From NCBI GenBank assembly GCA_964584335.1, contig CAZOZN010000002.1:8025-72024 (forward strand): a stretch of 64,000 nt of DNA, read 5' to 3'. Positions 1-62,803 of this stretch are shown in pieces. Position 1 is the stretch's first letter, and the number at the start of each line of letters is the position of its first letter. The notes beneath the pieces are model-generated. The model did not search any database and was not told the origin of the DNA. It saw nothing but the letters and a program-made list of their open reading frames with translations. Source of the DNA: an uncultured archaeon. GTDB lineage: Archaea; Aenigmatarchaeota; Aenigmatarchaeia; PWEA01; JAGHBM01. The position numbers and the translations under genes are program-made.

Positions 1-3000
1 GAGTTTATGTAAAGTATCGTTCCTGTACAATCTGTTATGTTTTTAGTCAAAGTAGTGGATTCATTGACGTAATCACCGCAATCCAAAACCTTCTTTACCT
101 TTATCTCGTGTTCCGAACCAAGGTTTATAGTAAAAGATGGAAGGTTGCCGGAGCCGTCCGTGATTAAGGTATAAGCAATCACAGAATTGTTGTAAACATT
201 ATAATATTCGTTTGAAAGCAATCCACTCAAGTCGTAAGTTGTCGTTACTCCGGAACCGCTCGTATTGCTGTCATTCCACTTCAATTCTCCCTGCTTCCAG
301 GTTAACAGTTCTCTTTCCAGAGTTGCCTGCGTGGAAACGGAAGTATTTAGCCATATACCTGACGAAGAATCGTTCTTGTAGTTAAAGCTGCTTGAAGTAT
401 CATTTAAGTTTATTTCTCTTGCTGTCGTGAATCCAGTATCAACAAAGTAGTCCGCGTCCGAACCCATTAATACATAATCATCACCGGAGCTGGCGCTTAT
501 TACTCCGCCGGTAATGCCTGAACCCGAACCCTTGAAAAGCCTTACTCCCGCATTCTGACCGGTTATTGTGTTGTCTGTTAAGGTGTTGTCGGAAGAACCG
601 AAAAACACTATACCCTCGTAACCGTCATCTATGATATTATTGTTCATTACTATGTTGCTGTGATTTATCCACAATCCACGCCCCCTGTAATCAGAAATAT
701 CGGAATTCCAACCGCAGTAATAAAGACTGCTGTCGTTCATCAAAAATCCTTCAGAGCTGTAAACCCAGAAGAAGAAATGAGCGCTTTCATTTCCTCCGTT
801 AACCTTTCCACCATTTGATATTATAGATTTGTCAAAAATCTCAAGATATCCCCTTGGAGTAACTTCTATTCCAATATGACCGTCTCTCGAAGCATTAATA
901 AGAAGCTTGGTGCGATTTACGTAATACCTGCCTACTATAGTTACATTGTTATTAACTATCAATGTCTCATTTGAAAGGACTGTCTTAAGGGTAGCATTGT
1001 CCTTAACTACCAAGGAACTCATATTTATGCTTCCCCTCCTGAAAACAACTTCCATATCGCTATCTATCACAAGATTCTTGTCAGTTGTTATGTTCATGTT
1101 CTCGCAAGTTAAGTTTCTGTTTATTGTCCAGTTTTCTCCGTACTTTGGAGGATAACACCTGCTCTTTGTGGTAAAGGAATATGTCTGGGAATTATTCCAC
1201 TTGTTTGAGGTATCGTTTGCGTAAACCTTCCAGGCAATTCCCGCGCCATAAGTAGAGTTGATTACCTTGGTAACGTTTGACCAGTCCTGAGTCCCACCGT
1301 TTGGGAAAGAAGACCACGTGTCGTTGTGCCAATTATCGTCGGATGAGGTAATGTTCCAAAACATTGAGTACTCAAAAATCGCACCGTTTTGGTTAACATT
1401 CCTTATATTTTTCCAATCGCCTGAAGTATTATAACAGTACCAATCAATATCTCCATTAATTGCATTAGAAAAAAATCTAAAAACTAGTTTAGAACTATCA
1501 TAGTTCCAGCAAGAAGAAGGTATTGTAAGATTATCGCTGCCGAAACCATCCTTAATTTTCAACAAGCTAAAGCTTAAGGCGCCATCGGGTTTAGTATAGT
1601 TAAAGTAATAATATGTACCAGGGCCGGAAATCGAAGTACTCCAATTTCCATCACGAGATAATGAACCATCAGGACCGTCATCGTAGTAAGAACCGGTGTA
1701 ATACAAAGCACAGTTTCCGTCAACAGGAGGATCTTCATCAGTTGAAGTTTGGTTAGTTGAATTGTCTGTCATATTTGTAAATTCTTGATAACATAAGCTT
1801 CCGCTAGATACAGCTCCGCAATCAGTCCCGTTCCAGCTACCGTTGCACAAGGAAAAAATGTAGCCGCTTAATCCGGAATCCTCCGTCCAGTTAAGTCCGA
1901 ACTTTACGGCTTCACCGGCATAGCTTGAATTAGTGTAATTATTCCAGTACTTTGGTGCAGCATTACCAACGACTCTTATCTCCTTTTCGCTGCCGTCATG
2001 GCTTATCGTAAAGCCTTCCAGTTCCCCGTTTGCGTCAGTGCTCAAAGTGTAAGCAAGAACAGAATTATTGTATACATTATAGCTTTCACTGGCATCGAGC
2101 CCGCTTATGTTGTATGTCGCAACCAAGGATGAAGAAGACGTATCGTTCCATTTTACCAAACTAACTCCCCAGTTGGTTATCTTTCTTGTAAGGTTGTGAC
2201 CGCCCGTGTCAACGGATGTGTTGACAAAAAGACCGCCGGAGTCGTGGTCATAGTTAAACCTAGAACCCGTGTCCACGAGATGGATTATTCTTTCCCGGGA
2301 AAAATTTGTCTCAACGAAAGAGTTGTTGTATGAATTCGACTCAAGTCTGTAATCTCTCATGTTCGAGTGAATGGAGCCAAGTTTTATCAGGTTGTTTGAG
2401 GAATCATAAGCAACTAAACCATTTGTATTTGACTTGATTATGTTGCCTGTCAAATAGTTATCAAGAGATTTGTATATGTAAATTCCGCTTGTGCTATAAG
2501 TTACGTTGTTGTAACTTACGTTATTTGAAGATGAAGGAGTGGAAGAAATCTTGAATATATAAATTCCTTTTGTGGCATTATATATTTCGTTATATTTTAC
2601 TATGTTGTTTTCACTGCCGTGAACTTCTATTCCATAACAAAAATTGGAACCATTAAATTCATTATTTAAAATATTATTGTAATTAGAATAAGACAACCTT
2701 AATAAGTATGAGTTAGATTCCTGACCTTTAAGTAAATTATTTTGAATAGTATTATTGTAAGATTGATAAAGACCGATTCCGTCTCCTTCTGTTCCCCTAA
2801 AAGTATTTTGAATTATAGTATTGTTTCTCGACTTTAAATAAATCTTTTGATTTCTTCCGTCATAAAAAGTATTATTCTCAACTAAACAAAAATCCGAACC
2901 AGTATCTATAATCAAAGAAATCTCATCTAAACCAGTATGTTTAACAGTATGTATAGTGTTGTTTTCAATTGTGCTGTTAGGACAGGAATCCAAATCAACG

Positions 3001-6000
3001 TTATAATTGGCATTATTGTGAATTGTATTGTTTAGAATAGTAGTGTTTCTGCCTGATTGGCATTGTATCCCATCGTAAAAATCCCTTATTTCGCAGTTCT
3101 TTATTGTATTGTAGTTTGAGCCGTCGCCTGTGTTATCCAATATAATTCCATACTCATGGGAGCCCGCACCATCGCCATCAAAGGTGTTGCCCTGACAGTC
3201 AAAAGTAACACCGTCCTTACCATTGAAATCTATACATGTTCCGTCATATTCCGCGGGTGTGGTTATCAACCTGACTTCATCCCCCGAAGAGGTGTTTCCA
3301 ACAGCCGATTCACAGTCATCACAATCGGTGCACTCAGCTATGTTTGTCACTGTGAATGTTCCTATTGAAGTAGAATTCTGGTTTCCGTAGGTGTTGTTTG
3401 CGTAGAACCTGTAACCAACCGCCTTGTTGAGACAGCCAAAAGGTATCCTCTTTGTTGTATTTGTCCAGTTGCCTGCCTGGAAAGTTGAAGTGCTTACGTT
3501 GGACCATCCGCCGGAGCAGTTGTTTGTTCCGTTCCAGCTGAAGGTATAATTTGAAAGCTCGCTTTCGTCAGTCCACTGCGAATACATCTTAACATAGGTT
3601 CCGGCGTTAGGTCCGGTAACGTTATCGCCGAAGTTCGAATAACTCGGTTTTTCCACATAAGACAGTGTGGTGTTGAAGGTGTATATTTCAGATGTGTTCC
3701 AGTTACCGGATGTGTCATTTGCCCTTACCTGCCAGGCAATCCAAGAACCGACAGTAGAATTAACTACCTTGGTAACATTGGACCAGTCTTCCGTACCGGA
3801 AAAGCCACCGCTTTCGTCGGTCCATGTATCATTCTGCCAACCCGATCCAAGACAATTTGCTCCGTTCCACGTCCCGTTACAAAAACTGAAAATGTATCCG
3901 GAAAGACCGACGTTGTCTGTCCATCTCAGACTGAATTCAACATCCTCGCCAGCTCCCGTAGAATTAGTCGAGTTGTCAAAATACTTGGGCTCCTCTGAGT
4001 CAACAACAGTGTATGTCTGCATTGGCATCGTGTAATTCCAGTTATCGCTGGTGTCATTAGCATACAAGAACCATCCAATGAGAGAGCCTGCTCCGGCAGT
4101 TGCCTGACTAGATACGTTAGACCATCCATAAGTTTTATTCTCAGTGGTGGTGAACATCAAATCGTAGTCAGAGCCTGTTCTGTTAGCATATGAAATTACC
4201 GCGTAATCCATAGAATCATATTTTTCTGCGACAAGAGTTCCCCTATTAATAGATATAGACCTGTCTCTGCCGTAAGTATACCTGTAAAGTCCCACAATAT
4301 TTCTGCAGGACCAACCACCGTCACCTTTGCAGTATCTCATTCTGTAAGGAACGGTATAGTTAACGTGAACTATGTGTATATCGTTGTTTTCATCGATAGC
4401 GATAGAGGAATAACGCCCGACATCGCCTCCTGTATCGATAGCACCACAATCCGGGCTTCCGCCAGAAATTCTACAGTACCTTAAATTGTCGTTTGTTGAA
4501 TCATAATGGCTTATATGAGAAACCCCATTAGGAGAAAGTGCTATCGACGAAAAAGAACCGTAAACATTCGTAGCATGACTGTCAGCGTCCATGCAACTAA
4601 AGCTCATACTATTAAAACCACTTTCCTCGCAATATCTCAAGTTACCGGAACTGGCATTCTGATGGCTTATTATAGAAATCAAATCTCTTCCAATGGCTAT
4701 TGAATTGTAGTAACCAACATTTCCTCCAGATTCAACGTCAGTACAGGACCAAGAGCCCCCATAAAACCTACAATATCTCAGGTCTCTGTTATCTATTTCC
4801 TGGTGTACGATTCTTACCATATCTTTATCTCCGACCGCTATAGAGCAATAGTAACCATCCTGTGTCTCCGAGTCAGGCGAAGAACAGCTCCAGGAACCCC
4901 CAGAGTTGTTGCAGTACCTTAAGTCCCTACTGGTATCATTGTAGTGACATATGTGAAGTACGTCAAATCTGTCTACTGCTATTGAAGAATGCATACCAAC
5001 AACACCTCCCGTCTCCACTGCAGTACAGCTCCAAGAGCCCCCCGAATTATTGCAGTATCTCAGGTCTCTGTTATCAGCATCATAATGGCTTATATGGTAG
5101 ACACCGTTGGAATCCACCGCAATAGAACTGTCATATCCCAAATTATTTGTAGTTTCCACCGTGCCGTTTGTCTGGTCAAAAAACTTTTCAGTATAGTTGG
5201 TCCAGGAACTCGTACCGTTCCACGAGAAAGTGTATGAATCCAGTTCCACGTCATCCTCCCAGAAGGCATAGTGCTTTACGTAATCATTTTGTTCAGGGTA
5301 TGTTCCAGCCGAAGAGTTATCACCCTCTTTTGAATATTTCGGCGGCTCGGAATCTATTGTTGTGGTTGTGGAGGTTGTTGATGTGGTGGAGGTAGTTGAA
5401 GTGGTCGATGTGGTGGAGGTGGTGGAAGTTGTTGAGGTGGAGGTTGAAGTCGAGGTTGATGTCGTGGAGGTGGTGGAGGTTGTGGACGTAGATGTTGAAG
5501 TCGAGGTTGATGTTGTTGAAGAAGCACTGCATATACATTCTTGAAACGGCTGGCAATTATTCTGTACTGGCAACTTACAATCACCAAATCTGCATCCTGA
5601 AACAGTACAGTTTGGTTGATTAACCATACTACAAGAACCGGAAGCACAATAACTCAAAGCTTGACAACTACTGTCACAGTCGTAAATTGTTGTTGTTGTT
5701 GTTGTTGTTTCTACGTCGCATACACAAAATCTCTCTGGAGCGTCATTGCATGGGTCCGTGTCAAATATACATGGCGTGCTGTCGCATGTACCACTGCAAC
5801 CCGGATAACTATCATCCGTACAATACCCCGTATCACAATTCTCATCCATTTTTTGGCAAGCTTCCGCACATTCTTTATCATCCAGAGTCCCGTAATCCCC
5901 CCCGCTTTCCGCATCACCGTACCAGCCGTAGTCGTATGGCTCCATTGTTTTTTTGTTTTTTACCGCGTTATGGAGGTCCAGACGGGATATGTTTATTTCA

Positions 6001-7784
6001 AGAGTCGAGTTGTATTCGTAGATAATTGGAAGCCCTGTGCTCCTGAGCCTTTGCTTAAGGTCCGTTACGTTGAGTGTTTCTTTTTCAAGCAAAAGAAGCG
6101 ATGCACCAGATACGTGAGGTGCTGAAAAGGAGGTTCCGGTTCCGGTTCCTGAAGGCGTGGTTATGTTTACTCCGGGAGAAAAAGAGTCAAGGGTGGGATT
6201 GACTGAAGAAAAATTTGCTATGTTGTCATTATCATCCGTGGCTCCTACGGAAAAAACCTTTGAGCCGCACGCGGGCGCTTTCATGCTCCTGTTTCCCTCG
6301 TTTCCGGCGGCGGCGACAACAAAAATCTGCTGGTCAAACGCCTGTGCGCTCATGCTAGCAACGAGGTTTGAATCGCAAAAACCGTCGTAATTTCCCGAAC
6401 CTATGGAGAAGCTTATCAAATCGGGCTCCTGGTCTATGCACCATTCAAGACCTGCAAGTACGTCCGATTCGTAGCCAAAACCGCTTCCGTTTATAACCTT
6501 TGCAACAAGTATATCCGCATCAGGTGCAATTTCATCTATTATCGAAACTACTTTTGTGCCGTGTCCGTTGTTGTCTTCGGGGTCGGTATCATTGTTAACA
6601 AAATCATAACCGTCTAAAAAATCGATGCCGGAAACGCCCGTGTCCAGAACACAGACAGTCTTTCCAGAACCTGTCAAGTTAAATTCATCTACTGACTCGT
6701 TCCATCTTATTATTGGAAGGGATTCCTCAAGCAGGAGAGAGAATTTGCTGTCTATTCTTATCTCCAATATATCAGTATTGTTTCTAAGTAATTCGAGGTC
6801 CTCTTCACTTAATTTGGTAGAAATAAAATTAATCCTGTCAAGACCCTTTGTTTTCCTGTCATAGCTTTCACTTCCTCTCAGGGAAGGTATTCTTTCATTA
6901 ATCAATTTCCAGTAGGCAGACTGGTTTCTTGCCCTTACCAAAACTCTTACCCTTTCCTTTTTTCTTAATTCTTCCTCTACTTTTCTGTCAACATCAACAT
7001 TGTACTTCACAGAAAGAAATGGATTTTCTTCCTTTACCAAGGGATTTTTAAGCTTGATTTCCTCAAAACTGTAATCAATCTCATCTATGTATAAAACCAC
7101 ATTATCAAGTTCCATCTCTATGCTGTAAGAACTGTCGGTAAGGTTTTCGACACTTAGATTGCATGTTTCCCTGCATTCGTTGTTAAAATTTACTGTAACA
7201 GAATCCAAATTAATTTCCCGTGATATCGATGAGGTAGTTTGAAGAGAAGTTGTTGTGTTTGTTAATTGTTCTGTTTCATTTTCCAAAGTCTTATTTTCTT
7301 TTATTGTATTATTTGAGAAGGTATCGTTTTGAATTATTGTCGTTTGTGTTGTTGATGTTGTAGGTATTGTTGTGTTTACAGAAGTTTCATTTTGTCTAAT
7401 TGTTGTGGTGGTGTTTTCATCTTTGTTTGTTTCATTCCCAAAAGTAGTATTATCTCCTATAATATAACCTGTTATGCCTGATTCTGTCCTTATTATTGTA
7501 TGGTTTAAAAGTAGATATCTTTTTTCTTCATTTACAAGATAAACTCTTGCGTATCCTGTATCATTTCCCCTTATGTAACCTGTCGCCTTTAAAAAAGAAA
7601 GCTTGCCCTCATCATAATTATCAGGTTCCCAGACAAAACTACTGTTACCCTCTGCAATTACATCAATTTCCTGAGACTCCGCGGCAGTATAGAGACCAGT
7701 TATGCCGCTTCTTTCATAAAAGACCAAAGGACTGAGCGCCAGAATTATAAGTGAGAATAGCAAAAATTCCCTTAAAATTTTCAT
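1..7784 (-). CDS. Giant secreted/surface multidomain protein (partial; C-terminal end runs off the window; >=2594 aa). Domains: signal peptide, S8 subtilisin-like protease, Ser/Thr linkers, Cys-rich segment, ~45-aa repeats, two parallel beta-helix regions.
   Basis: Manual minus-strand translation from ATG at 7784-7782 (SD GGAGGTG 7 nt upstream): MKILREFLLFSLIILALSPLVFY... Subtilase triad motifs read directly: VLDTGVSGID (~6625-6660), NNGHGTKVVSI (~6555-6590), GTGTGTSFSAPHVSGAS (~6095-6135). Poly-STSTS and TTTTTTT linkers (~5340-5545, 5688-5711). Repeats SIA.D..G..HI.HYD...RDLRYC.NSGGSWSC (~4250-5150). PbH1-like NNTIxNN repeats (~2400-3100 and ~500-1100). The ORF track lists no plus-strand ORFs here and no >=60-aa minus-strand ORF sharing this start. 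It is absent from the track because it has no in-window stop. Confidence 0.8.
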   Translation of the reverse strand, partial: MKILREFLLFSLIILALSPLVFYERSGITGLYTAAESQEIDVIAEGNSSFVWEPDNYDEGKLSFLKATGYIRGNDTGYARVYLVNEEKRYLLLNHTIIRTESGITGYIIGDNTTFGNETNKDENTTTTIRQNETSVNTTIPTTSTTQTTIIQNDTFSNNTIKENKTLENETEQLTNTTTSLQTTSSISREINLDSVTVNFNNECRETCNLSVENLTDSSYSIEMELDNVVLYIDEIDYSFEEIKLKNPLVKEENPFLSVKYNVDVDRKVEEELRKKERVRVLVRARNQSAYWKLINERIPSLRGSESYDRKTKGLDRINFISTKLSEEDLELLRNNTDILEIRIDSKFSLLLEESLPIIRWNESVDEFNLTGSGKTVCVLDTGVSGIDFLDGYDFVNNDTDPEDNNGHGTKVVSIIDEIAPDADILVAKVINGSGFGYESDVLAGLEWCIDQEPDLISFSIGSGNYDGFCDSNLVASMSAQAFDQQIFVVAAAGNEGNRSMKAPACGSKVFSVGATDDNDNIANFSSVNPTLDSFSPGVNITTPSGTGTGTSFSAPHVSGASLLLLEKETLNVTDLKQRLRSTGLPIIYEYNSTLEINISRLDLHNAVKNKKTMEPYDYGWYGDAESGGDYGTLDDKECAEACQKMDENCDTGYCTDDSYPGCSGTCDSTPCIFDTDPCNDAPERFCVCDVETTTTTTTIYDCDSSCQALSYCASGSCSMVNQPNCTVSGCRFGDCKLPVQNNCQPFQECICSASSTTSTSTSTSTSTTSTTSTTSTSTSTSTSTTSTTSTTSTTSTTSTTSTTSTTTTIDSEPPKYSKEGDNSSAGTYPEQNDYVKHYAFWEDDVELDSYTFSWNGTSSWTNYTEKFFDQTNGTVETTNNLGYDSSIAVDSNGVYHISHYDADNRDLRYCNNSGGSWSCTAVETGGVVGMHSSIAVDRFDVLHICHYNDTSRDLRYCNNSGGSWSCSSPDSETQDGYYCSIAVGDKDMVRIVHQEIDNRDLRYCRFYGGSWSCTDVESGGNVGYYNSIAIGRDLISIISHQNASSGNLRYCEESGFNSMSFSCMDADSHATNVYGSFSSIALSPNGVSHISHYDSTNDNLRYCRISGGSPDCGAIDTGGDVGRYSSIAIDENNDIHIVHVNYTVPYRMRYCKGDGGWSCRNIVGLYRYTYGRDRSISINRGTLVAEKYDSMDYAVISYANRTGSDYDLMFTTTENKTYGWSNVSSQATAGAGSLIGWFLYANDTSDNWNYTMPMQTYTVVDSEEPKYFDNSTNSTGAGEDVEFSLRWTDNVGLSGYIFSFCNGTWNGANCLGSGWQNDTWTDESGGFSGTEDWSNVTKVVNSTVGSWIAWQVRANDTSGNWNTSEIYTFNTTLSYVEKPSYSNFGDNVTGPNAGTYVKMYSQWTDESELSNYTFSWNGTNNCSGGWSNVSTSTFQAGNWTNTTKRIPFGCLNKAVGYRFYANNTYGNQNSTSIGTFTVTNIAECTDCDDCESAVGNTSSGDEVRLITTPAEYDGTCIDFNGKDGVTFDCQGNTFDGDGAGSHEYGIILDNTGDGSNYNTIKNCEIRDFYDGIQCQSGRNTTILNNTIHNNANYNVDLDSCPNSTIENNTIHTVKHTGLDEISLIIDTGSDFCLVENNTFYDGRNQKIYLKSRNNTIIQNTFRGTEGDGIGLYQSYNNTIQNNLLKGQESNSYLLRLSYSNYNNILNNEFNGSNFCYGIEVHGSENNIVKYNEIYNATKGIYIFKISSTPSSSNNVSYNNVTYSTSGIYIYKSLDNYLTGNIIKSNTNGLVAYDSSNNLIKLGSIHSNMRDYRLESNSYNNSFVETNFSRERIIHLVDTGSRFNYDHDSGGLFVNTSVDTGGHNLTRKITNWGVSLVKWNDTSSSSLVATYNISGLDASESYNVYNNSVLAYTLSTDANGELEGFTISHDGSEKEIRVVGNAAPKYWNNYTNSSYAGEAVKFGLNWTEDSGLSGYIFSLCNGSWNGTDCGAVSSGSLCYQEFTNMTDNSTNQTSTDEDPPVDGNCALYYTGSYYDDGPDGSLSRDGNWSTSISGPGTYYYFNYTKPDGALSFSLLKIKDGFGSDNLTIPSSCWNYDSSKLVFRFFSNAINGDIDWYCYNTSGDWKNIRNVNQNGAIFEYSMFWNITSSDDNWHNDTWSSFPNGGTQDWSNVTKVINSTYGAGIAWKVYANDTSNKWNNSQTYSFTTKSRCYPPKYGENWTINRNLTCENMNITTDKNLVIDSDMEVVFRRGSINMSSLVVKDNATLKTVLSNETLIVNNNVTIVGRYYVNRTKLLINASRDGHIGIEVTPRGYLEIFDKSIISNGGKVNGGNESAHFFFWVYSSEGFLMNDSSLYYCGWNSDISDYRGRGLWINHSNIVMNNNIIDDGYEGIVFFGSSDNTLTDNTITGQNAGVRLFKGSGSGITGGVISASSGDDYVLMGSDADYFVDTGFTTAREINLNDTSSSFNYKNDSSSGIWLNTSVSTQATLERELLTWKQGELKWNDSNTSGSGVTTTYDLSGLLSNEYYNVYNNSVIAYTLITDGSGNLPSFTINLGSEHEIKVKKVLDCGDYVNESTTLTKNITDCTGTILYIN

Positions 7785-7993
7785 TTCTTTGCACCTCCGT
7801 TGAGGTAGCAAAGCTTTGCTATGCCCAGCTTTCTTATCTTTATCTTTCCAGAGCCCTCCAGCCTGTAAACATACTTGGTAACCGTGTGCCTGTGGGCTCC
7901 TATCGCATCCGCAAGGTCAAGTATCATCGTGCCTTCTGGATGCTTCTTGAGGTATTTTAGTATCTTTTTTTCTATTTCTTCCATTAAAAACAC
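7781..7993 (-). CDS. Small winged-helix (wHTH) DNA-binding transcriptional regulator; its stop overlaps the giant gene start (ATGA).
   Basis: 70 aa; ...ILDLADAIGAHRHTVTKYVYRLEGSGKIKIRKLG is a typical HTH recognition helix plus wing. TGA stop at 7783-7781 overlaps ATG 7784-7782 of the downstream giant gene. Confidence 0.6.
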   Translation of the reverse strand: MFLMEEIEKKILKYLKKHPEGTMILDLADAIGAHRHTVTKYVYRLEGSGKIKIRKLGIAKLCYLNGGAKK

Positions 7994-53790: not shown

Positions 53791-53892
53791 AAGATAACTG
53801 GGTTTTTAATCAAATAAATAAGTCAAAGAATATTTCTCAGAATATACCTAAAGCTAGATAATAAAAATATAAGAAAAGGAAAATTGGGGGTT

Positions 53893-54840
53893 TTAAGGTG
53901 ATTCTGCTCCTTCTACTGTTACTGTTGTGTGTACGTCTTCAAAGTATCCGTATCTTAACGTAACTGTTACTGGTATGTCTGTCCTTGTGCTGAAATCTTT
54001 AGGATCTAAGTCACAACTGTACGTGAAAGATTGTCCTCTTCTAAGTGTCTGGTCTGTTGGAGTATCGTATGCATCACAATCTGAACCTGAAGCACCGTCA
54101 ACTCCATCCGCATTTATTTCCAATTCAATTATATCCATTTCATCAGATGTTATGTCCAAAGTGCTCATATCATGGTCAGGGTCTATCAGACTTCCTCTCT
54201 CAAGCAAATCAACTGTTATCCTAAAATCTATTGTATCGTCTGCTGGATCGTCCACTACTACTGGTGTTCTTGCAACAATTTCAACAGCAAGAGGACCTTT
54301 TGTTACTTCTGTAGTTACTGGTGGTAAATTTAGCATGTTTCTTTCTCTTAGTCTCTTGTATTCTTCCTTTGTCAAAACTGGTATGGTTGCAGATGCAATC
54401 GTTTCATAATTATACATTAATCTTGCTCTGGGGGTGTACTTGAATACAACTCCCTCTGGTATTCCCGTTGGAGTCTGTAATTCCCATTCAACATCAGCTA
54501 TCTCTCCTGGAATGTCTGCAAGTGTATCAGGCTGTTCAAGCTCTGCTGCAACTTCCTGTGAAAAGTCAGTTGTTCCTGGGTCCCATACGTCCTCATCTAT
54601 ATCATATAAATGAGCCCATACGTCTTCTGCCATAGAACCTCCGACATTTTCGACTTCCATATACAATTCAACATCTTCATTTTCAGATTCATAGTCAGGG
54701 AAGTCAGAGCTGAACTCGTGTATTACAACTCCACCAGCGGTGCTTGTTATTTGTTCATTTCCCATTATTCCTTCTAATCCTACACATCCGCTGGAAAATA
54801 AAACGGTTGCAACCAAGACCAATATTAAAGCTTTTTTCAT
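53893..54840 (-). CDS. Secreted lipobox-bearing protein (signal peptide ...LFSSGC), CARDB-like; paralogue of 54855-55739 and 56567-57547.
   Basis: MKKALILVLVATVLFSSGC; VELYMEVENVGGSMAED beta-sandwich-like; shared EEYKRLRER motif with paralogues. Confidence 0.5.
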   Translation of the reverse strand: MKKALILVLVATVLFSSGCVGLEGIMGNEQITSTAGGVVIHEFSSDFPDYESENEDVELYMEVENVGGSMAEDVWAHLYDIDEDVWDPGTTDFSQEVAAELEQPDTLADIPGEIADVEWELQTPTGIPEGVVFKYTPRARLMYNYETIASATIPVLTKEEYKRLRERNMLNLPPVTTEVTKGPLAVEIVARTPVVVDDPADDTIDFRITVDLLERGSLIDPDHDMSTLDITSDEMDIIELEINADGVDGASGSDCDAYDTPTDQTLRRGQSFTYSCDLDPKDFSTRTDIPVTVTLRYGYFEDVHTTVTVEGAESP

Positions 54841-54854
54841 TATATTATTCCTCC

Positions 54855-55739
54855 TTAATTTGGTTTTACTTCGATATTAATAGTTTTGTAGTAGTTATAT
54901 ATATAATTTGCCTCGGCCTTAAATTGTCCTTTTTCCCTTACATCGACCGAGCCAACCGTAAATTTGCATGTGGCCTTCTTTGTCCTGCCGTTCTTAAACT
55001 TGAGTGGCGTGTTTAAAATCATCTGCCCTCCCCCAGCAGTAAAATCGTTGCACTGAGGGTTTATCAAGAAATCAGGGTATTCGATAACTAAATCAGTTCC
55101 TGAAATCTCTTCTTCCGGCATACCGCTTCCCCTGTTTATTAACTGTACGTAAAAATATAATTCCAAACCCTCGTACAGCGGCTGGGGTTTTGATATAGAC
55201 AAATCTATTTCAACTGGTGTCTTGGTCTTATAATAGTAAAGATTTATCTCTCCTGTTCTTCCCTGTCTTTCAAGTCTGCCGTATTCTTCTTCTGTCATTG
55301 CTATGACATCGTACATAGAAGAAGCCTTGGATTTGTAATTAACCCTGTACCTTAAAGTTTCCCTTTGACTTGAATGTATTTCATCAGAAAGGTCTAGCTT
55401 CCACTCCCAATTTTCCATATCGCCCTCTTCCATCTCGATTATATATTCGCTGGTAGCACCTAAAGAAGTAAAATCAACCAAATCTGTCATCTCGACATTT
55501 ATATCCTCTAGAGTCGTGTTTCCAGAGTTATACAAGTCAAAATACAATATGGTGCTCTTACCTTCATAAACCACATTAGGTATTGCTTCAACATCTACAT
55601 CTAAATCCTCATATTGATTATATTTTGGCTCATCGGGTCCCATATCAAGTCCCAATTGAGAAAAAACATCACCGCCTGTTATACAACCAGAAGTAAGTAA
55701 TACTAAAGATAAAAACAAAATTAGAAAGTAACTCTTCAT
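54855..55739 (-). CDS. Secreted lipobox-bearing protein (signal peptide ...LLTSGC), CARDB-like; paralogue.
   Basis: MKSYFLILFLSLVLLTSGC; STILYFDLYNSGNTTLEDINVEMTD; EEEYGRLERQGR motif. Confidence 0.5.
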   Translation of the reverse strand: MKSYFLILFLSLVLLTSGCITGGDVFSQLGLDMGPDEPKYNQYEDLDVDVEAIPNVVYEGKSTILYFDLYNSGNTTLEDINVEMTDLVDFTSLGATSEYIIEMEEGDMENWEWKLDLSDEIHSSQRETLRYRVNYKSKASSMYDVIAMTEEEYGRLERQGRTGEINLYYYKTKTPVEIDLSISKPQPLYEGLELYFYVQLINRGSGMPEEEISGTDLVIEYPDFLINPQCNDFTAGGGQMILNTPLKFKNGRTKKATCKFTVGSVDVREKGQFKAEANYIYNYYKTINIEVKPN

Positions 55740-55778: not shown

Positions 55779-56132
55779 TTAACCCATCCCGAAAGGTTCT
55801 ACACAGCCACAAGCTCTCGCGACTTTCCTTATGTTATCTTTATCACTACAATCAAATTTTGAAAAATCTTTTTTTTCTATTGAAGAATAAGAACAACAAA
55901 GTTCGTAAGGTATCTCGTCTCCCTTGCAATTAGTCCTTGCCCAGGAAACACATAAAGAATTAAAGTCCTGTTTTTGCCTGTATATATCCAAGCCCGGTGA
56001 AAAGGTACCCATAAAGAAAATAAAAGTCGCAGCGAGAAAAACACCACCTGATATAATTATAATTAATTTTTCCGAGGTGATTATAACTCCCTTCATGTTA
56101 ACCACTATAACAAAAGAAAAATAAAAGAACAA
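55779..56132 (-). CDS. Pilin-like small secreted protein with class-III (type IV prepilin-like) signal peptide and Cys-rich C-terminal domain. Start probably at the internal Met near 56096.
   Basis: MKG|VIITSEKLIIIISGGVFLAATFIFFMGTF then C.SWARTNC ... ARACGCVEPFG; paralogous to 56144-56512. Confidence 0.4.
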   Translation of the reverse strand: MFFYFSFVIVVNMKGVIITSEKLIIIISGGVFLAATFIFFMGTFSPGLDIYRQKQDFNSLCVSWARTNCKGDEIPYELCCSYSSIEKKDFSKFDCSDKDNIRKVARACGCVEPFGMG

Positions 56133-56143
56133 AATGGGTTATG

Positions 56144-56512
56144 CTAGTATGTAAAGTCACGACCAAATGGTTTTAGACAGTTACAGGCTTCAGCGACTAC
56201 TTCGTACCTAGTATCTATACTAGTATCTGGTACATAACCGACACCAGTCATGTTGTGGTAAGCTTTTGCTACATTATCAGGCATTCCTAGACTATCAGTA
56301 CTTTCCACACATCCAGCTGTACCTATAGTACAATTATCACAATTAGATAAGGCCCAGCTTTGGCACTTAGAGTTAAAGTTCTGCTGTAATGTCTGCTGTT
56401 GTGCTGTGGGTCCGAAAGCACCCATAAACCAAGCAACTGCTGCTAGTAACACTATTATTGCCACTGCTAACATAACCAAAGTGTTTATTGGTATTGAAAC
56501 TCCTTTTTCCAT
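56144..56512 (-). CDS. Pilin-like small secreted protein with class-III signal peptide and Cys-rich C-terminal domain.
   Basis: MEKG|VSIPINTLVMLAVAIIVLLAAVAWFMGAF (K-G then ~25 hydrophobic residues); C.SWALSNC ... AEACNCLKPFG. Confidence 0.45.
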   Translation of the reverse strand: MEKGVSIPINTLVMLAVAIIVLLAAVAWFMGAFGPTAQQQTLQQNFNSKCQSWALSNCDNCTIGTAGCVESTDSLGMPDNVAKAYHNMTGVGYVPDTSIDTRYEVVAEACNCLKPFGRDFTY

Positions 56513-56566
56513 TTTTATCTCCTTTTTATTAATTTATTTAACTTATTTAAATACTTTTTTCATTTC

Positions 56567-57547
56567 TTAATCCATAGTATATGTTGGTTTTATTGTAACC
56601 ATCCTTTCCTCATATAGAGGATAAACATAATCCTCTAATTTTGCGACAGCCTTGTATGTCTTTATATCACTAATATCAGCAGATTGTAAGTCACATCTTA
56701 TAGGAGGAGATACTCCTTTTATTAAAGGTATGGGTGCATCGTTAACTATTTCTGTGTCACTGACCACGTTTATCCAATTTACAGGATGGCATGAGTTAAC
56801 AGTAAGACCGTTATCAAATTCAACACTAAACACACCAGAAGGAACTTCTTCATACATACCACTTCCTTCATCATGAATTCTGATTATTGCTGGTATAACT
56901 AAGTTTTCATCCACTGGTTGTTGGGTTTCAAAAAGCATTTCTATTTTTAATGGTCCTCTTGACTGTGTCTGAACTGGAGTAATTGATATTTTCTCTCCAG
57001 CCCTATTTGCATTTATTAATCTATCATGGTCAATAACGGCTATATCCGAGGTCGTGTAGGAATCATATTCATATTCAACCTTAAAACGTATTGGACACTT
57101 CCCTTCCATTCTCCCCAGGTCTTCGTTAGTAGGTGCCTTGAATTGCCATTCAACAAGTTCGGCGCCTCCTCCAGGATAAATTGTAGCACCTCCTATATCA
57201 TTGCTTATATCCACTTCATCACATCTACCCCAGTCATAAACAGTTGCATATACATCTTCAGCGGCTTTTGCGCCCTCATCTGTGAGTCCTATATTGGTTA
57301 CTATAAAAGAAATCGTGAAAGTAGAATCTGTAGTTTCAGTAGATGCAGAAACGGGCGGATTAGGTATTACCTCTATATCTTCTACCACAATAACATCAGT
57401 AGGAGCTTTTACTGTTTCAGTCTCAACTATACCAAGAGATTCGAAAACAGATTGCATACCGCCTCCCTCAACACAACCTGAAACAAAAATAACAGGAGAT
57501 AAAATAAAAACAATACTCAAAACAGACAAAATTTCCTTTAAACTCAT
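56567..57547 (-). CDS. Secreted lipobox-bearing protein (signal peptide ...IFVSGC), CARDB-like; paralogue.
   Basis: LSVLSIVFILSPVIFVSGC; TFTISFIVTNIGLTDEGAKAAEDVYATVYD; DHDRLINANRAGE motif. Confidence 0.5.
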   Translation of the reverse strand: MSLKEILSVLSIVFILSPVIFVSGCVEGGGMQSVFESLGIVETETVKAPTDVIVVEDIEVIPNPPVSASTETTDSTFTISFIVTNIGLTDEGAKAAEDVYATVYDWGRCDEVDISNDIGGATIYPGGGAELVEWQFKAPTNEDLGRMEGKCPIRFKVEYEYDSYTTSDIAVIDHDRLINANRAGEKISITPVQTQSRGPLKIEMLFETQQPVDENLVIPAIIRIHDEGSGMYEEVPSGVFSVEFDNGLTVNSCHPVNWINVVSDTEIVNDAPIPLIKGVSPPIRCDLQSADISDIKTYKAVAKLEDYVYPLYEERMVTIKPTYTMD

Positions 57548-57593: not shown

Positions 57594-60191
57594 TTATTTT
57601 ACACATTTTCCGTTGCTACATCCATTTGGACAATTATGTAAGTTTCTTGTTGCACTGCCACCTTCACAAACAGCTTCAGCAAGATTAGTTGCAGAATCCA
57701 AACAATCTCCACCAGAACTTTCCATACAACAATCATTATAAGTCGTATCTCCCTCAGTAGCTCTGGATTTTCTATAATAGTTATAACCACCATCATAATC
57801 CGTACAGTTAACGTCAACATAATTATTACTGTTACACTTTCCATTACTGCAACCATTCATACAATTGTAATTATGACTTGATACAGAATCTCCATCACAA
57901 TCCCACTCGGTCAACTGATCACCACTACATGAATCAGTATGTCCTATACCATCGGTTCCTGTTGCAGTTCCTTTGTTAAAGTGGTCTGGGCCGTTATCGC
58001 TATCCGTGCAAGATGATCCCCCGTCTCCACTATCTCCATCATCACCTTCAGAGGGTTCCCTACAATCTACCATATTCCAAGAACCACATAAACTTGAACA
58101 AGCACTGTTTCCACTACCGCACTCATAAATTCTAAGAGTTTTCATCTGCCCACTAGTTGGATCTTGACATATACATTCCATATAAGACCCAAAACTAACT
58201 TTCATTTTATTTTCAATTTTATCAACATAAGTATAATTAACCAAACCAGTCAATGCAAAAGTTTTCTGCTCTACGTCTATATTAGGTATCCTTGATATAC
58301 ATATAGCCTTTACAGGTTTTCCTATTGTTTCGTTTCCGTCCATGTACTCAGCCAAGCCTCTTAACTTCAAATCATTATCATCTCCAAGACTTGGTTCACA
58401 ATAAGTATCTTCTGTTCCCTCTATATCGCTAACATCAACTCTTGCATATTTTATATTATCAACATAACCATTAGCTACATTTTCCAAATAAAGCATAACC
58501 GGAACTTCCTCCAAATCATCTCTTACCGGCATGTTGTTTCTCATTAAAGCAATACCAAGTCTTACAGGACCACCAGTATCTTCTGTAACTTGTTCCTTTA
58601 CATCCAATTTGCCGTTTCTATCAAGCCTATAATAATAAGATTTATTCATTATCATTACATCTACAAGACCTTCAACACTCAAGTCATAACTTATATTTAC
58701 ACCGTAAGAAACATAATTACCACTAACAAGATTATCAATATTATATCTAAGAACTATTTCACGCATCTCTCCTGGTATTAATTTAGGTAAAGGACAACTT
58801 GGATTTGCTGTATTTCCATCTTCACATGTCATACTAACCGTACCAGCAAGAATCCTTTCCTCTTCCAAAGTACCCTGTGTATAGTATGGTTCTATTGGCG
58901 TTATACTTATATCATAAGCACTCCTGTCACCTTTATTTTCTATCCTACCAATAATCAAAACCTCGCCGGGTTTTTCTATATTTTCGTTACCGAAAATTTG
59001 TAAATCGGTTACCTCAACTGCTTTTATACTTCTCTTGGTATAAGTTTTTGGTTTATAATCCTGATAACATGCTATAGGATTAGCAAGACAAGAATAACCA
59101 TATCCTAATGTTCCCAAAGGAGACCCTAGATTTTCCATTATAGGTCCCGCTATCTGGTCTATGTTATAATCAATTGTAGGCCACCAGTCACCAAAAACAG
59201 CTTCTCCCATTATATCAGGGTAAGCTATTGCTGTGCTTGCAAGAGCAACAACAAGTATTGGTACGCCTATGAAAGTTTTTGCCTTGTCCACGGGGACGGA
59301 AGCGAGTATTCCCAAACCAACAACTGATGAGAATATTACAAAACCAACAAGACTGCTAGTGCCTGACTGTCCTAAGAACGAAACTGAACTAAGTGCAAGA
59401 CCGCCTCCACCAAGAGCGCCCAGTATTATACCATTTACGTTTCTACCCAACAAAAAACCAATACCCACCGAAACCGCAGCCATGACAATCCCGATTCCAA
59501 TAGTGAAAAACTTAGTTAAATCAACAGATATGTCAGGAGCTGTAATAGAAAGTAAAAAAACTACCAAAGTAACAAAAACAAGGATAATAACAAGATACAT
59601 AAAAAATTTTCCAATCTGACCAGCGTCTTTCTCCCCGGCAGATCTTCTAACACCTTCACTTAATCTTTCCCCAACTTCGTAAAATTTTTGAAGCATTTTT
59701 GCTGAGACATCATTTCTACCCTGAACATCAACGGATGGTATAGTTATGAAAAATCCTGAAGCAATTAAAATAAGAGACCAAAACAAAGTCGGATTGCTTG
59801 AGCTAATATCTGAAAATATGTATCCGAATGTGATTACCATTAAAATTCCTAAAATCATTTTCAAAACAGAAAGACCGACTTCCTCGTCTGAAGAAACGCT
59901 ATCAGAAGGCGAGCTCATTATTCCAACAGAAAGAACAAATAATGGTATAAACTTCAAAAACGGGAGAGGACCAAACATCAATAATGTCCCCAAGCTCAAA
60001 AAGATGAAACCACAAGACCTGAAAAAAGCCCTTACATAACCTATATACTCAAATGAATCAATGTTAAAAACAGAAGTGGGTTTTTCAGGATGATAACCTC
60101 CCTGATCTAACAAACCCGGTTTTTCAGCATGACAAATAGGACAAGGATAGCTACTTATTTCCTCTCCGCAGTTGAAACATCTCTTTGTCAT
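57594..60191 (-). CDS. Large polytopic membrane protein: N-terminal cytoplasmic Zn ribbon, ~8 TM helices, large extracytoplasmic CARDB-like domain, Cys-rich C-terminus with duplicated C(x)NGCSNGKC motif.
   Basis: 865 aa; CFNCGEEISSYPCPIC; multiple long hydrophobic segments (residues ~60-330); C-terminal YNCMNGCSNGKC and HNCPNGCSNGKC; 36 Cys in the last ~230 aa. Confidence 0.55.
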   Translation of the reverse strand: MTKRCFNCGEEISSYPCPICHAEKPGLLDQGGYHPEKPTSVFNIDSFEYIGYVRAFFRSCGFIFLSLGTLLMFGPLPFLKFIPLFVLSVGIMSSPSDSVSSDEEVGLSVLKMILGILMVITFGYIFSDISSSNPTLFWSLILIASGFFITIPSVDVQGRNDVSAKMLQKFYEVGERLSEGVRRSAGEKDAGQIGKFFMYLVIILVFVTLVVFLLSITAPDISVDLTKFFTIGIGIVMAAVSVGIGFLLGRNVNGIILGALGGGGLALSSVSFLGQSGTSSLVGFVIFSSVVGLGILASVPVDKAKTFIGVPILVVALASTAIAYPDIMGEAVFGDWWPTIDYNIDQIAGPIMENLGSPLGTLGYGYSCLANPIACYQDYKPKTYTKRSIKAVEVTDLQIFGNENIEKPGEVLIIGRIENKGDRSAYDISITPIEPYYTQGTLEEERILAGTVSMTCEDGNTANPSCPLPKLIPGEMREIVLRYNIDNLVSGNYVSYGVNISYDLSVEGLVDVMIMNKSYYYRLDRNGKLDVKEQVTEDTGGPVRLGIALMRNNMPVRDDLEEVPVMLYLENVANGYVDNIKYARVDVSDIEGTEDTYCEPSLGDDNDLKLRGLAEYMDGNETIGKPVKAICISRIPNIDVEQKTFALTGLVNYTYVDKIENKMKVSFGSYMECICQDPTSGQMKTLRIYECGSGNSACSSLCGSWNMVDCREPSEGDDGDSGDGGSSCTDSDNGPDHFNKGTATGTDGIGHTDSCSGDQLTEWDCDGDSVSSHNYNCMNGCSNGKCNSNNYVDVNCTDYDGGYNYYRKSRATEGDTTYNDCCMESSGGDCLDSATNLAEAVCEGGSATRNLHNCPNGCSNGKCVK

Positions 60192-60198
60192 ATTATCA

Positions 60199-61575
60199 CT
60201 AAATTTTACTCAAGCCGAAAAATATTATTCCCACTCCTATTAGTGTTGCCCCCAGCTGGTTTGTGTATGGGCCCAAGACCAAAGATACCAAAAGACCTAA
60301 AACCAAAGATGTTACAATAGGAGTTATAGATGAATGCAAAATGCCCACACTAGTACCTTCCAAGCCTTTCTTATCTGGATAAAAATCATACCCAGATCCT
60401 ATAAAACCGCACGAATTGCATGCAATTTTACCATCGGCGTCATATCTTAAATTATGGGAACCGCATTTGGGGCATTTTCCTCCACTTGGTTTTTCTCGAT
60501 TTGTTGTCTTTTTATCTTTTTCCTCATCTTTTTTCCTTTGAGACTCTATTTTTTTCTCCGTCATATCGAAAAACTTACCTGATTGTTCCAAAGCTTTTTC
60601 TTTCTCTAACTTTTTCTCAGTTTGTTCAAAAAACTTTCCGGTATCTTTCAGAGCTTGATCATACTCATTTCTCTGTAAATCAAGCAATTTTTTTCTTGCT
60701 CTTTCATTTTCTTTTTCAGTCCTTTCAAACCAATCACCGGCCTCTTTGTAAGCAGCCGGTATTTTTTTCTTTTCTCTTCGTGTAGAAACTCCACTATCCT
60801 TTCTCCTAATTAATTTACCAATACTAGGTTTTTCATATTTTTTTGAACTATATTTTTTCAATAGATCTTTGGATACATTAGGAGGTTTATTCATATCCCC
60901 GACAGACTTAGATTCAACTCTTTTTCTGTGTCTTTCCTTTTCAGCCTCTCTTTCCAACAAAAATTTATTCAATATCTCGTACTGTTCCTCGGTTATCTTG
61001 CCTTCGTCAGCAAAAACTCTTATAAGCAGCCTTAAACTACTAAAATCTTCAAGTTGTGAATTAGAAATAATATTTTTTAATTTTACAACGGCTTTTGAAC
61101 CCAAGACTTTTTTCTTTCTAAGTGCTTCTTCTTTTTTATTCAAAAATTCAAACAAATAATTTATATCATTATTACTAAGACCGGGTGATTTGGATATTAT
61201 ATCATTTAACAACTGGTCTCTGTCTACGTTTCCTTTGTTGATTTTTTTAACATGTTTCTTAACAAAATTCCCGGGTCTTGTATCCTGATATGCTTCGGCT
61301 TCATAAGCTACCCATCTCATAGCCTTGTTTAATTCACTTCTCAGCTTTTCAAGCTCATAATCACTAAATTTATCAATATTATTTGTTATTTTCTCTCTGC
61401 AATATTTCAATTTGTTCATGTCTTTATTAGAAACGGCACTCTTTATCTGCTTTGATATGTGTTTATATTCGCTTCCCATTCCTTCACCTGAGGGTGCTCT
61501 TTTTATATTTAAGTTATTGGATTTCCTATTTTTAAGCTTTTTTTCTTTTATAACAATTCCTTTGTTTTTAATCAA
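60199..61575 (-). CDS. Tail-anchored membrane protein: long K/E-rich coiled-coil cytoplasmic region with three G(K/D)(F/W)FE.TEK repeats, a Zn ribbon (CPKCG...CNSCG), and two C-terminal TM helices.
   Basis: 458 aa; repeats GDWFERTEKENERARKK / GKFFEQTEKKLEKEKA / GKFFDMTEKKIESQRKK; C-terminal ITPIVTSLVLGLLVSLVLG and LIGVGIIFFGL. Confidence 0.5.
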   Translation of the reverse strand: MIKNKGIVIKEKKLKNRKSNNLNIKRAPSGEGMGSEYKHISKQIKSAVSNKDMNKLKYCREKITNNIDKFSDYELEKLRSELNKAMRWVAYEAEAYQDTRPGNFVKKHVKKINKGNVDRDQLLNDIISKSPGLSNNDINYLFEFLNKKEEALRKKKVLGSKAVVKLKNIISNSQLEDFSSLRLLIRVFADEGKITEEQYEILNKFLLEREAEKERHRKRVESKSVGDMNKPPNVSKDLLKKYSSKKYEKPSIGKLIRRKDSGVSTRREKKKIPAAYKEAGDWFERTEKENERARKKLLDLQRNEYDQALKDTGKFFEQTEKKLEKEKALEQSGKFFDMTEKKIESQRKKDEEKDKKTTNREKPSGGKCPKCGSHNLRYDADGKIACNSCGFIGSGYDFYPDKKGLEGTSVGILHSSITPIVTSLVLGLLVSLVLGPYTNQLGATLIGVGIIFFGLSKI

Positions 61576-61615: not shown

Positions 61616-62803
61616 TCATAAATCAACATGGAAATCTGATATAGTGTAGCCACCGCTTCCTGTTACCGAGAATATTACCTTGTTTTCACCAACCCCTGCA
61701 TAGTTCTTAGGAAGCCTCAAGCTTATGGTATTTCCCTCGTCAAGAACACCCTGCACAACAAGAGAATGTTTGTCTCCGTCAGGATTTTCTACAGTAGCTA
61801 CAAGAGAAGTTGGTGTTTCAAATATTTTCTCTATCTTGAATTTTATTTCTCCCGGTAATCTTCTATGTTGAGAACCGGTCAAGTAGAAATTCATTTCAAG
61901 TTCTTCCGAAGCCTCTCTATCCCAGAATATAATTATTTCCGCATCTCTTGCTGTAAATTCGGTTCCCCTTTCAGAAGACATTTCAATCAAGTTATCTCCT
62001 TCTCTTATTATGTCTTCAAAATCAATCCACTGTATAAACCTGGGTGTATCGCTGAAAACATTTACCCCATTAACATTAACAAAAAGTTTTCCGTCACCTT
62101 CTATTTCGTCAAAATTAATTATAATTCTTCCCAGATTTACCGGTGTTTCTTTTTCGCCTACATAAAAATTGAAACTTTGTGATACTGTTCCAACAAAGTC
62201 ACTCTTCAGCTCAAGGTTCCTTAACTTATATACAGTGGGAGCCCACATTCTCCAGCCGCTGGACTCCGAAGTAACCAAAAATTCATTATCTTCTGAGAAA
62301 AAACTAATATCAATAGGTATTTCAAAACTTTCTCCGGTTTTAAGTGGCTCTGAGAAAATCTCTTTACCGTTTAAACCAAAAATCAATCTTCCGTAAAGAT
62401 TTGTATCGTATACTTCTCCCAAAAGAGAAACAGATTTCATCTTGTTCAAATCATCCTCGGTGAGAGAAAATATTTTATTATATTCTTTCGATTCGAGTAT
62501 GCCGTTTTTAACTGTCAACTCATCCTCTTGTATAAAAGATTTCTTCTCTGTTACATAACTTATTTTGAAGGGTTTTCTCATAAGATATATGTGCCTCAAA
62601 TCTTCAACTTCTCTGGTACCCACAAAATCATCTTCCGGTAGATTTATTTCGGGCTCGCTGACAGAACGATTGCTTCTCTCCGGAGGCACAAACCTGTAAC
62701 TTGGACCAACAAGAAAATTACCACCATCCATCATCATGTAAAAACTAAAAAAAAGCAAGATACCTACTATAAAAACCTTTGTAAAATACGGGATTTTTCC
62801 CAT
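61616..62803 (-). CDS. N-terminally anchored (signal-anchor TM) extracytoplasmic protein, unknown function.
   Basis: 395 aa; TM VFIVGILLFFSFYMM then an acidic beta-rich domain. Confidence 0.5.
   Translation of the reverse strand: MGKIPYFTKVFIVGILLFFSFYMMMDGGNFLVGPSYRFVPPERSNRSVSEPEINLPEDDFVGTREVEDLRHIYLMRKPFKISYVTEKKSFIQEDELTVKNGILESKEYNKIFSLTEDDLNKMKSVSLLGEVYDTNLYGRLIFGLNGKEIFSEPLKTGESFEIPIDISFFSEDNEFLVTSESSGWRMWAPTVYKLRNLELKSDFVGTVSQSFNFYVGEKETPVNLGRIIINFDEIEGDGKLFVNVNGVNVFSDTPRFIQWIDFEDIIREGDNLIEMSSERGTEFTARDAEIIIFWDREASEELEMNFYLTGSQHRRLPGEIKFKIEKIFETPTSLVATVENPDGDKHSLVVQGVLDEGNTISLRLPKNYAGVGENKVIFSVTGSGGYTISDFHVDL

Follow-up and report, generated by a model that had tools for sequence, protein, structure and literature searches.

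Candidate type IV pilins with cysteine-rich heads from an unannotated DPANN protein family

Two small adjacent genes in a 64,000-nucleotide stretch of DNA from an uncultured Aenigmatarchaeota archaeon (assembly GCA_964584335.1, contig CAZOZN010000002.1; the whole stretch is referred to here as the window) encode pilA-like and pilB-like proteins, for short pilA and pilB. We consider it probable that these are type IV pilin-like subunits of an unannotated DPANN family, processed after a Gly residue and assembled by a T2SSE/T2SSF machine encoded elsewhere in the genome. pilA would provide a main structural subunit and pilB a variant of it, with the surrounding cluster of genes, several of which encode CARDB family proteins, serving as an envelope partner.

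The initial annotation of the interval 55779-56512, made from the sequence alone, had described a tandem pair of paralogues with a common Cys-rich C-terminal module, and this description is borne out. The interval contains two adjacent open reading frames (ORFs) on the minus strand, the products of which align over their full length (BLASTP, 30% identity over 116 columns, E 1e-15). The module common to both reads C.SWA..NC ... A.AC.C..PFG, and its four Cys are invariant in an alignment of 34 family sequences. The further claim that ~25 uncharged residues follow the KG dipeptide in both proteins holds for pilA, where the uncharged segment spans 29 residues, and fails for pilB, which carries E and K at +7/+8 of an otherwise hydrophobic segment that is 35% identical to pilA. 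pilB (as P0036) matches the family profile at E 7e-29. A mechanically generated ORF list extends pilB to a TTG at 56132; an independent gene call on the identical contig of a public run gives a protein of 105 amino acids, and hence the TTG start is too long.

A word-seeded search identified 33 homologues (best E 1e-29), all of which lack a Pfam domain and are named 'hypothetical' at most. Extending the search with a family profile to 1.84 billion cluster representatives returned 766 representative clusters at E <= 1e-3, 108 of these at E <= 1e-10. Nearly all profile matches are 90-130 amino acids long and aligned end to end, and the similarity of the homologues is far beyond chance. Database lookup gave no names or accessions on record for the window proteins, and Pfam and NCBIfam searches with both proteins and six neighbours gave sub-threshold matches only. 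The family is without any Pfam or NCBIfam model, and it is not described in the literature consulted, including surveys of archaeal type IV filament systems. Named relatives of the cluster proteins all belong to Candidatus Aenigmatarchaeota or other uncultured DPANN archaea. The kind of protein, archaeal type IV pilins, is known; the variant with a predicted helical three-disulfide head, and with one subfamily locked into a cluster that does not encode the machinery, appears to be new.

Motif and Cys statistics were derived from an alignment of 150 family members. The initial annotation had assigned both N-termini to the class III signal type cleaved by archaeal prepilin peptidases, an assignment that is supported by the family as a whole. 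Lys occupies position -2 in 141 of 143 members and Gly position -1 in 135 of 143, with Ala in five others. The +1 residue is I, V, M or L, Pro is found at +4 in 134 of 146 sequences and Asn at +6 in 121, giving the family motif G/[IV]S[LI]P[IV]N, with the slash marking the predicted cleavage site. The leader preceding the Gly is net positive and varies from 3 to 75 residues. In pilA the site reads ME-K-G/V and in pilB M-K-G/V, so that both combine a charged leader with class III residues at -2, -1 and +1. A hydrophobic segment of ~28 residues starts directly after KG (hydropathy peak 12-30), sufficient for the helix of at least ~20 residues expected of class III substrates. Positions -2, -1 and +1 are known to matter most to archaeal signal peptidase III; archaeal substrates are set apart by a positive charge at -2, and they frequently lack Glu at +5 (PMC3387779). 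Judged by these positions, the family fits the published archaeal prepilin peptidase substrate pattern exactly. Pilin_N (PF07790) matches 27 of 34 family members over the N-terminal segment, in every case below threshold (best E 0.0076), a consistent, if weak, indication that the family may be related to the euryarchaeal PilA-type pilins. A distinct class III type, defined by Gln at +1 and the QxSxExxxL motif of EppA substrates in Methanococcus (PMC2910488), does not apply: pilA and pilB have no Pfam match to DUF361/Class_IIIsignal, and +1 is I/V/M/L.

Conservation is distributed very unevenly along the protein. Among close orthologues, identity averages 94.6% over residues 3-33 and 43.3% over the remainder, as expected of pilin helices packed in a filament core.

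Evidence for the nature of the filament system comes from the genomic context of relatives (related loci are given as L numbers). Family members in other DPANN contigs are found at the 3' end of long rows of genes that run in one direction, just upstream of alba (L009-L012, L015, L016, L019, L020 and L024). The L027 locus, an extension of L015, opens with a 751-amino acid T2SSE ATPase (E 2.7e-14, above threshold), followed by a 116-amino acid ORF and a 689-amino acid membrane protein with a full-length, sub-threshold match to T2SSF, corresponding to the platform. Several tiny ORFs come next, then six proteins of 143-826 amino acids whose N-termini are class-III-like (two contain 38 and 58 Cys), two family members of 95 and 107 amino acids and finally Alba. 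Many of the 182 homologues of the L027 platform protein carry PF00482 and are named TadB. The same order is seen in L026, located on the complete chromosome CP070662.1 of a metagenome-assembled genome (MAG), where the operon runs head-on into a copy (L013) of the cluster type found in the window. Rows of class-III-like proteins also adjoin family members in L009, L012 and L020, and another pilus-type row includes a 538-amino acid class-III-like protein with a PKD domain; the pilus-row proteins of L013 gave no Pfam matches. These relatives thus stand last in operons headed by a T2SSE ATPase and a T2SSF-like platform. The family would accordingly provide the small pilin in a type IV filament system of DPANN archaea, and the pilin-like character proposed at the outset gains support from this context. 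Minor pilins or adhesins are better sought among the larger class-III-like proteins, with their PKD or Cys-rich modules.

Two further features of these rows were observed. Four to six tiny ORFs of 47-74 amino acids always follow the platform gene (L026 12090-13218; L027 9638-10291; L028 4340-5083), and these may encode very short pilin-like proteins. The position of operon-type family members directly upstream of alba is seen in many unrelated contigs. In L020 (11082-11932) the alba frame starts internally (77 amino acids) after a 176-amino acid ORF with a LAGLIDADG-like motif (LGGVFDAEGN), which suggests an intein or homing endonuclease insertion.

The head of the protein is rich in Cys. The mature part contains an even number of Cys in 143 of 150 members, and exactly six in 85. 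The 34-sequence alignment places six core Cys in fixed columns; pilA alone is without the third and fourth of these and has gained two other Cys nearby, and in three other lineages one Cys is lost and one gained elsewhere. Even counts together with compensated loss and gain point to extracellular disulfide partners, and both disulfide formation and the pairing of the Cys are presumed on this basis. An AlphaFold2 model of pilA, calculated with the 34-sequence alignment, has a mean predicted local distance difference test (pLDDT) score of 80.9. It displays a 46-residue N-terminal helix (residues 9-54, pLDDT ~90) and a small all-helical head (helices 79-89 and 103-109, no sheet), an arrangement that resembles a pilin-like 'lollipop'. 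The model and the lack of any PDB match agree with the earlier remark that a Cys-rich head is atypical for archaeal pilins. The C-terminus is predicted to be surface-exposed, since some members append a Thr-rich linker and a knottin-like module there. This six-Cys module is present in P0009, P0013, P0016, P0019, P0023 and P0034 (e.g. L003 10001-10456) and weakly matches the Conotoxin/Toxin_12 Pfam models; the proteins that carry it resemble modular pilins.

We propose the following route from precursor to filament. The short positive leader (MEKG or MKG) would retain the precursor in the membrane, where an archaeal prepilin peptidase would cleave after the Gly. The ~28-residue hydrophobic N-terminal helix would then act as the polymerisation scaffold in the filament core. 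A T2SSE ATPase and T2SSF platform, encoded elsewhere in the genome, would then build the filament, with the small helical heads and their three disulfides forming its surface. The most likely role of pilA, which has the canonical helix, is that of a major structural subunit; for pilB, whose helix is divergent, it is that of a variant or minor subunit. The surrounding genes (three CARDB lipoprotein-like proteins, the polytopic g865, a Zn-ribbon protein and g395) would supply a cell envelope module for anchoring or adhesion. The positions of all of these are given in Table 1.

Table 1 Features of the pilA-pilB locus and of the neighbouring cluster (window coordinates; aa, amino acids; nt, nucleotides; TM, transmembrane)
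Feature	Position	Strand	Description
g315	53893..54840	-	315 aa; lipoprotein-like CARDB-family paralogue
g294	54855..55739	-	294 aa; lipoprotein-like CARDB-family paralogue
pilB-like	55779..56096	-	105 aa; ATG at 56096, stop at 55779; start MKGVIITSEKLIIIISGGVFLAATFIFFMGTF / MKGVIITSEKLIIIISGGVFLAATFIFFMGTFSPG; leader MKG; altered helix (VIITSEKLIIIISGG...); 7 Cys including the six core positions of the family
T-rich run	56109..56134	-	ttttgttcttttatttttcttttgtt, 26 nt; between pilA stop and pilB start; from sequence reading
pilA-like	56144..56512	-	122 aa; start MEKGVSIPINTLVMLAVAIIVLLAAVAWFMGAF / MEKGVSIPINTLVMLAVAIIVLLAAVAWFMGAFGPT; from ORF and sequence reading; leader MEKG; predicted cleavage after G4; hydrophobic helix to ~F33; 6-Cys head (C50, C58, C61, C68, C110, C112)
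GGAG	56519-56522	-	7-10 nt upstream of pilA ATG, after the TATA-like box; from sequence reading
TATA-box-like element	56544..56551	-	TTTAAATA; 32-39 nt upstream of pilA ATG; from sequence reading, putative function
g326	56567..57547	-	326 aa; signal peptide, conserved SGC lipobox-like motif; CARDB-type beta-sandwich family
g865	57594..60191	-	865 aa; N-terminal Zn-ribbon, ~9 TM helices (55-324), ectodomain ~390-670
g458zn	60199..61575	-	lysine/glutamate-rich; CxxC...CxxC zinc ribbon, C-terminal TM helices; probably cytoplasmic
g395	61616..62803	-	395 aa; N-terminal membrane anchor, Cys-free ectodomain

The T-rich run that follows pilA could be an archaeal oligo-T terminator or an attenuator. 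Taken together, the putative signals fit a pilA gene with its own promoter and strong expression, and partial read-through to pilB.

The cluster is compact, with intergenic gaps of 7-54 nucleotides throughout. Its order (g395, Zn-ribbon protein, g865, g326, pilins, g294, g315), located next to Pelota, recurs in L002, L003/L004, L005, L006, L007, L008 and L013, with protein identities of 35-65% and one to three pilin copies. The cluster is conserved in Aenigmatarchaeota, and all of its products are predicted to be membrane or extracytoplasmic proteins. The best conserved is g395 (52-65% identity to orthologues), a distant homologue of which is found in L018. The true start of g458zn is probably the ATG at 61479, and the protein is fused to a g865 homologue in L003. 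tblastn comparison identifies g326, g294 and g315 as distant paralogues; CARDB is matched by 10 of 23 members of their family (best E 3e-13). All three have an invariant S-G-C after a hydrophobic region of normal length, unlike pilA and pilB. The g865 protein contains 31 Cys, its C-terminal part being Cys-rich and repeated, and its ectodomain is related to g326, with motifs in common with g326, g294 and g315.

A repeated Cys-rich module, C..G..L.E..C.G.....NC.NGCSNGKC, ends g865 (residues 724-865) and is also seen at the end of two class-III-like pilus-row proteins of the Aenigmatarchaeota contig L012 (634-1056 and 2704-3126; 33-34% identity, E 4e-14). The module common to g865 and the L012 proteins thus links the two locus types. 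Both types also occur together in single genomes, as seen for MAG RS_12_33 (L006 and L012) and CP070662.1 (L013 and L026).

Further observations concern g865 and the end of the cluster. An invariant AYPD[IV]MG.A.FG.WWP.I[DE] motif directly follows the last transmembrane helix of g865. A homologue search returned six proteins only, one of which bears the NCBI name 'MFS transporter', a label that is probably wrong. An AlphaFold2 model of g865 is of low confidence (pLDDT 57.5), and its top Foldseek match is the soluble domain of archaeal STT3/AglB (E 5e-5, TM-score 0.13-0.22), alongside generic tandem beta-sandwich proteins. We reject an oligosaccharyltransferase function for g865 given the low TM-score, the generic beta-sandwich matches and a sequence profile in which no STT3 was found; the resemblance itself is unexplained. 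The g315 homologue is followed by a gene for a 407-408-amino acid protein with an MJ0043_C domain in L002 (12970-14196), L003 (12502-13725) and L005 (12309-13535), and in L002 a major facilitator superfamily (MFS) transporter comes next. At 53791-53892, the window passes from g315 straight to an MFS gene.

Several observations weigh against the assignment of pilA and pilB as subunits of a machine-built pilus. pilA scores 16.9 bits (E 0.012) against Pilin_N, short of the gathering threshold of 25.2 bits, pilB has no match to this model, and NCBIfam pilin models match neither protein. The pilA model lacks the beta-sandwich (Ig-like) head of a typical archaeal pilin or archaellin. Comparison of this model with the PDB by Foldseek gave nothing below E 5, and no pilin by fold, and the family profile found no solved pilin among PDB sequences, its best hit, to a membrane helix, being due to chance. 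Some archaeal proteins that do not form filaments, such as sugar-binding proteins, carry class III signals as well (PMC2910488). A scan for the GxGDxK motif of prepilin peptidases across 418 kb, comprising the window and 27 related loci, yielded one soluble false positive only, with no A24-like GxGDxK membrane ORF in the 64-kb window or the 27 loci; literature on Aenigmarchaeota prepilin peptidases provided nothing usable. As no prepilin peptidase was located, support for the class III and pilin reading is indirect. Finally, no pilus machinery can be recognised in the cluster that holds the window copies, and no pilus ATPase, platform or A24 peptidase is present in the cluster or the 64-kb window. 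The sequencing run that gave the contig of the window contains another contig, similar in GC content, with a 736-amino acid T2SSE ATPase (E 1e-16) and a 698-amino acid platform homologue. The presence of this pair in the same run counts in favour of the assignment; that its contig stems from the same genome as the window is likely, and, being unproven, is a point on the negative side. Also in favour, archaea are known to have pilin loci that stand alone, apart from the machinery (bioRxiv 10.64898/2026.04.22.720090).

The cluster context leads to an alternative that we regard as a tentative possibility, namely that the class III signals are real and no long pilus is made. After cleavage, the conserved helix would stay in or near the membrane and nucleate a short oligomeric stalk, akin to a bindosome or pseudopilus, which organises the CARDB proteins and g865 into an Aenigmatarchaeota-specific surface complex. 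This could account for a gene order that is kept in at least seven loci, for products that are all membrane or extracytoplasmic, and for a helix that is far more constant across genomes in cluster-type than in operon-type pilins, which suggests an extra conserved partner. In archaea, surface assemblies other than filaments make use of class III signals too, and the small pilin-like BasABC gave no visible pili (PMC2910488). However, co-localisation is no proof of physical interaction, the cluster offers neither an assembly ATPase nor a platform, the same family is found in canonical pilus-type operons elsewhere, and a near-invariant N-terminal helix is just as characteristic of a genuine major pilin.

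A more speculative, and in our view unlikely, variant is that g395, the Zn-ribbon protein, g865, the three CARDB proteins and one to three disulfide-rich, all-helical pilins together form an undescribed surface organelle. The pilins would then polymerise or dock on a dedicated membrane base that is distinct from T2SSE/T2SSF, and the whole could be a host attachment device.

The initial annotation had suggested that the Cys-rich proteins could form disulfide-stabilised tip adhesins, that is, minor pilins with their heads at the tip of a pilus made from another major subunit. The heads are indeed Cys-rich and surface-exposed, the divergent helix of pilB is a trait often seen in minor pilins, and some family members have extra knottin-like C-terminal modules. 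This suggestion is not supported, and we consider it quite improbable: the small size, near-invariant helix, tandem copies and separate promoter-like signals fit a structural subunit better. No other candidate for the major pilin was seen, as the pilus-type operons otherwise hold larger class-III-like proteins and tiny ORFs. The head comprises only ~70 residues with no recognisable binding domain, an almost invariant canonical helix encoded in tandem arrays is a property of major pilins and archaellins, and the larger proteins with PKD or Cys-rich modules are the better adhesin candidates.

Neither pilA nor pilB has the features of a Sec (class I) or lipoprotein (class II) signal, with no Cys before residue 49/50 and no lipobox. 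The only small-x-small site at the end of the stretch, A-F-G, precedes a Pro. Given this, an uncharged stretch of ~28 residues and its start right after K-G, a Sec signal is unlikely. A non-pilin reading, in which these small Cys-rich proteins would belong to the envelope or be peptides of toxin or bacteriocin type, either retained by a signal anchor that is not cleaved or released by Sec signal peptidase, is very improbable: it could draw on the lack of any pilin model above threshold, on weak conotoxin or knottin matches in the C-terminal extensions of a few members and on the failure to find a peptidase in the window and the 27 loci, but the stretch is too long for a Sec hydrophobic region of ~7-15 residues and begins right after a near-invariant K-G, no small-x-small site with a permissive +1 lies near its end, a mere anchor would not be expected to be 95% identical where the rest is 43%, and the operons of relatives include a T2SSE ATPase together with a T2SSF-like platform.

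Pilin-like subunits of a type IV filament hence remain the reading that we prefer, and several known systems offer points of comparison. Like Haloferax volcanii PilA1-6 (Pilin_N, formerly DUF1628), the family has a short charged leader in which position -2 is basic and position -1 small. Other traits shared with euryarchaeal PilA-type pilins are the V-S-x-P-I type mature N-terminus leading into a long, highly conserved hydrophobic helix, the presence of several paralogues per genome and genes that are often apart from the ATPase/platform locus. The family differs from PilA-type pilins in its sub-threshold Pilin_N scores, its DPANN lineage and the location of the window copies inside a CARDB lipoprotein cluster, and its ~70-residue head is modelled as helical with three disulfides, in contrast to the Cys-poor beta-sandwich of the euryarchaeal proteins. 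The bacterial competence major pilin ComGC is likewise small, with a globular part made of helices only, and is nonetheless compatible with a filament (PMC7212644). No sequence or Foldseek similarity to ComGC was found, and ComGC is bacterial, processed by a PilD-type enzyme and without the six-Cys pattern; the resemblance is one of function and architecture only, an analogy rather than homology. The six family members in which a Thr-rich linker and a Cys-knot-like module extend the pilin are reminiscent of the modular Streptococcus sanguinis PilB (PMC8179133), although the window proteins are without such an extension and the modules added in their relatives are tiny. Sulfolobus BasABC of the bindosome and the class III sugar-binding proteins (PMC2910488) similarly are small class III proteins possibly organising a surface assembly. 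Unlike the cluster in the window, the Bas genes adjoin their own ATPase and platform (BasEF); the partners here are CARDB lipoprotein-like rather than substrate-binding proteins, and no sequence relationship was found.

Elsewhere the window carries genes for split RNA polymerase subunits, ribosomal proteins, EF-1alpha, Pelota and tRNA modification enzymes of archaeal type, with GC content ranging from about 0.31 to 0.44. Thirty further window ORFs that were screened correspond to RNA polymerase, ribosomal proteins, tRNA modification enzymes and the like, and the search of the window for further class-III-like ORFs gave none. A frame of more than 2,600 codons without a stop extends past the window start (3-7916, minus strand), which accounts for the seeming absence of ORFs and the raised GC content in that part. 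On the other side of Pelota, related loci encode proteins of 2,760-3,387 amino acids with CarboxypepD_reg-type repeats. The segment 35041-35739 contains a 5S rRNA and three tRNA matches that extend over 86-120 nucleotides compared to a model of 71 positions; the excess length is probably due to introns or to a long variable arm.

DPANN archaea live on host cells, to which they are attached by means that are little understood. Our literature search found no structurally characterised pilin from DPANN lineages. With 766 representative clusters and a place beside ATPase/platform operons, the family described here is a widespread candidate for the main fibre subunit in DPANN attachment. The helical head with three disulfides would represent a design unreported for archaeal pilins, one that implies oxidative folding outside the cells, and the conserved CARDB lipoprotein-like companion cluster presents a testable module for anchoring or adhesion. 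A profile of the family, all members of which are currently 'hypothetical', would improve the annotation of pilins in metagenomes.

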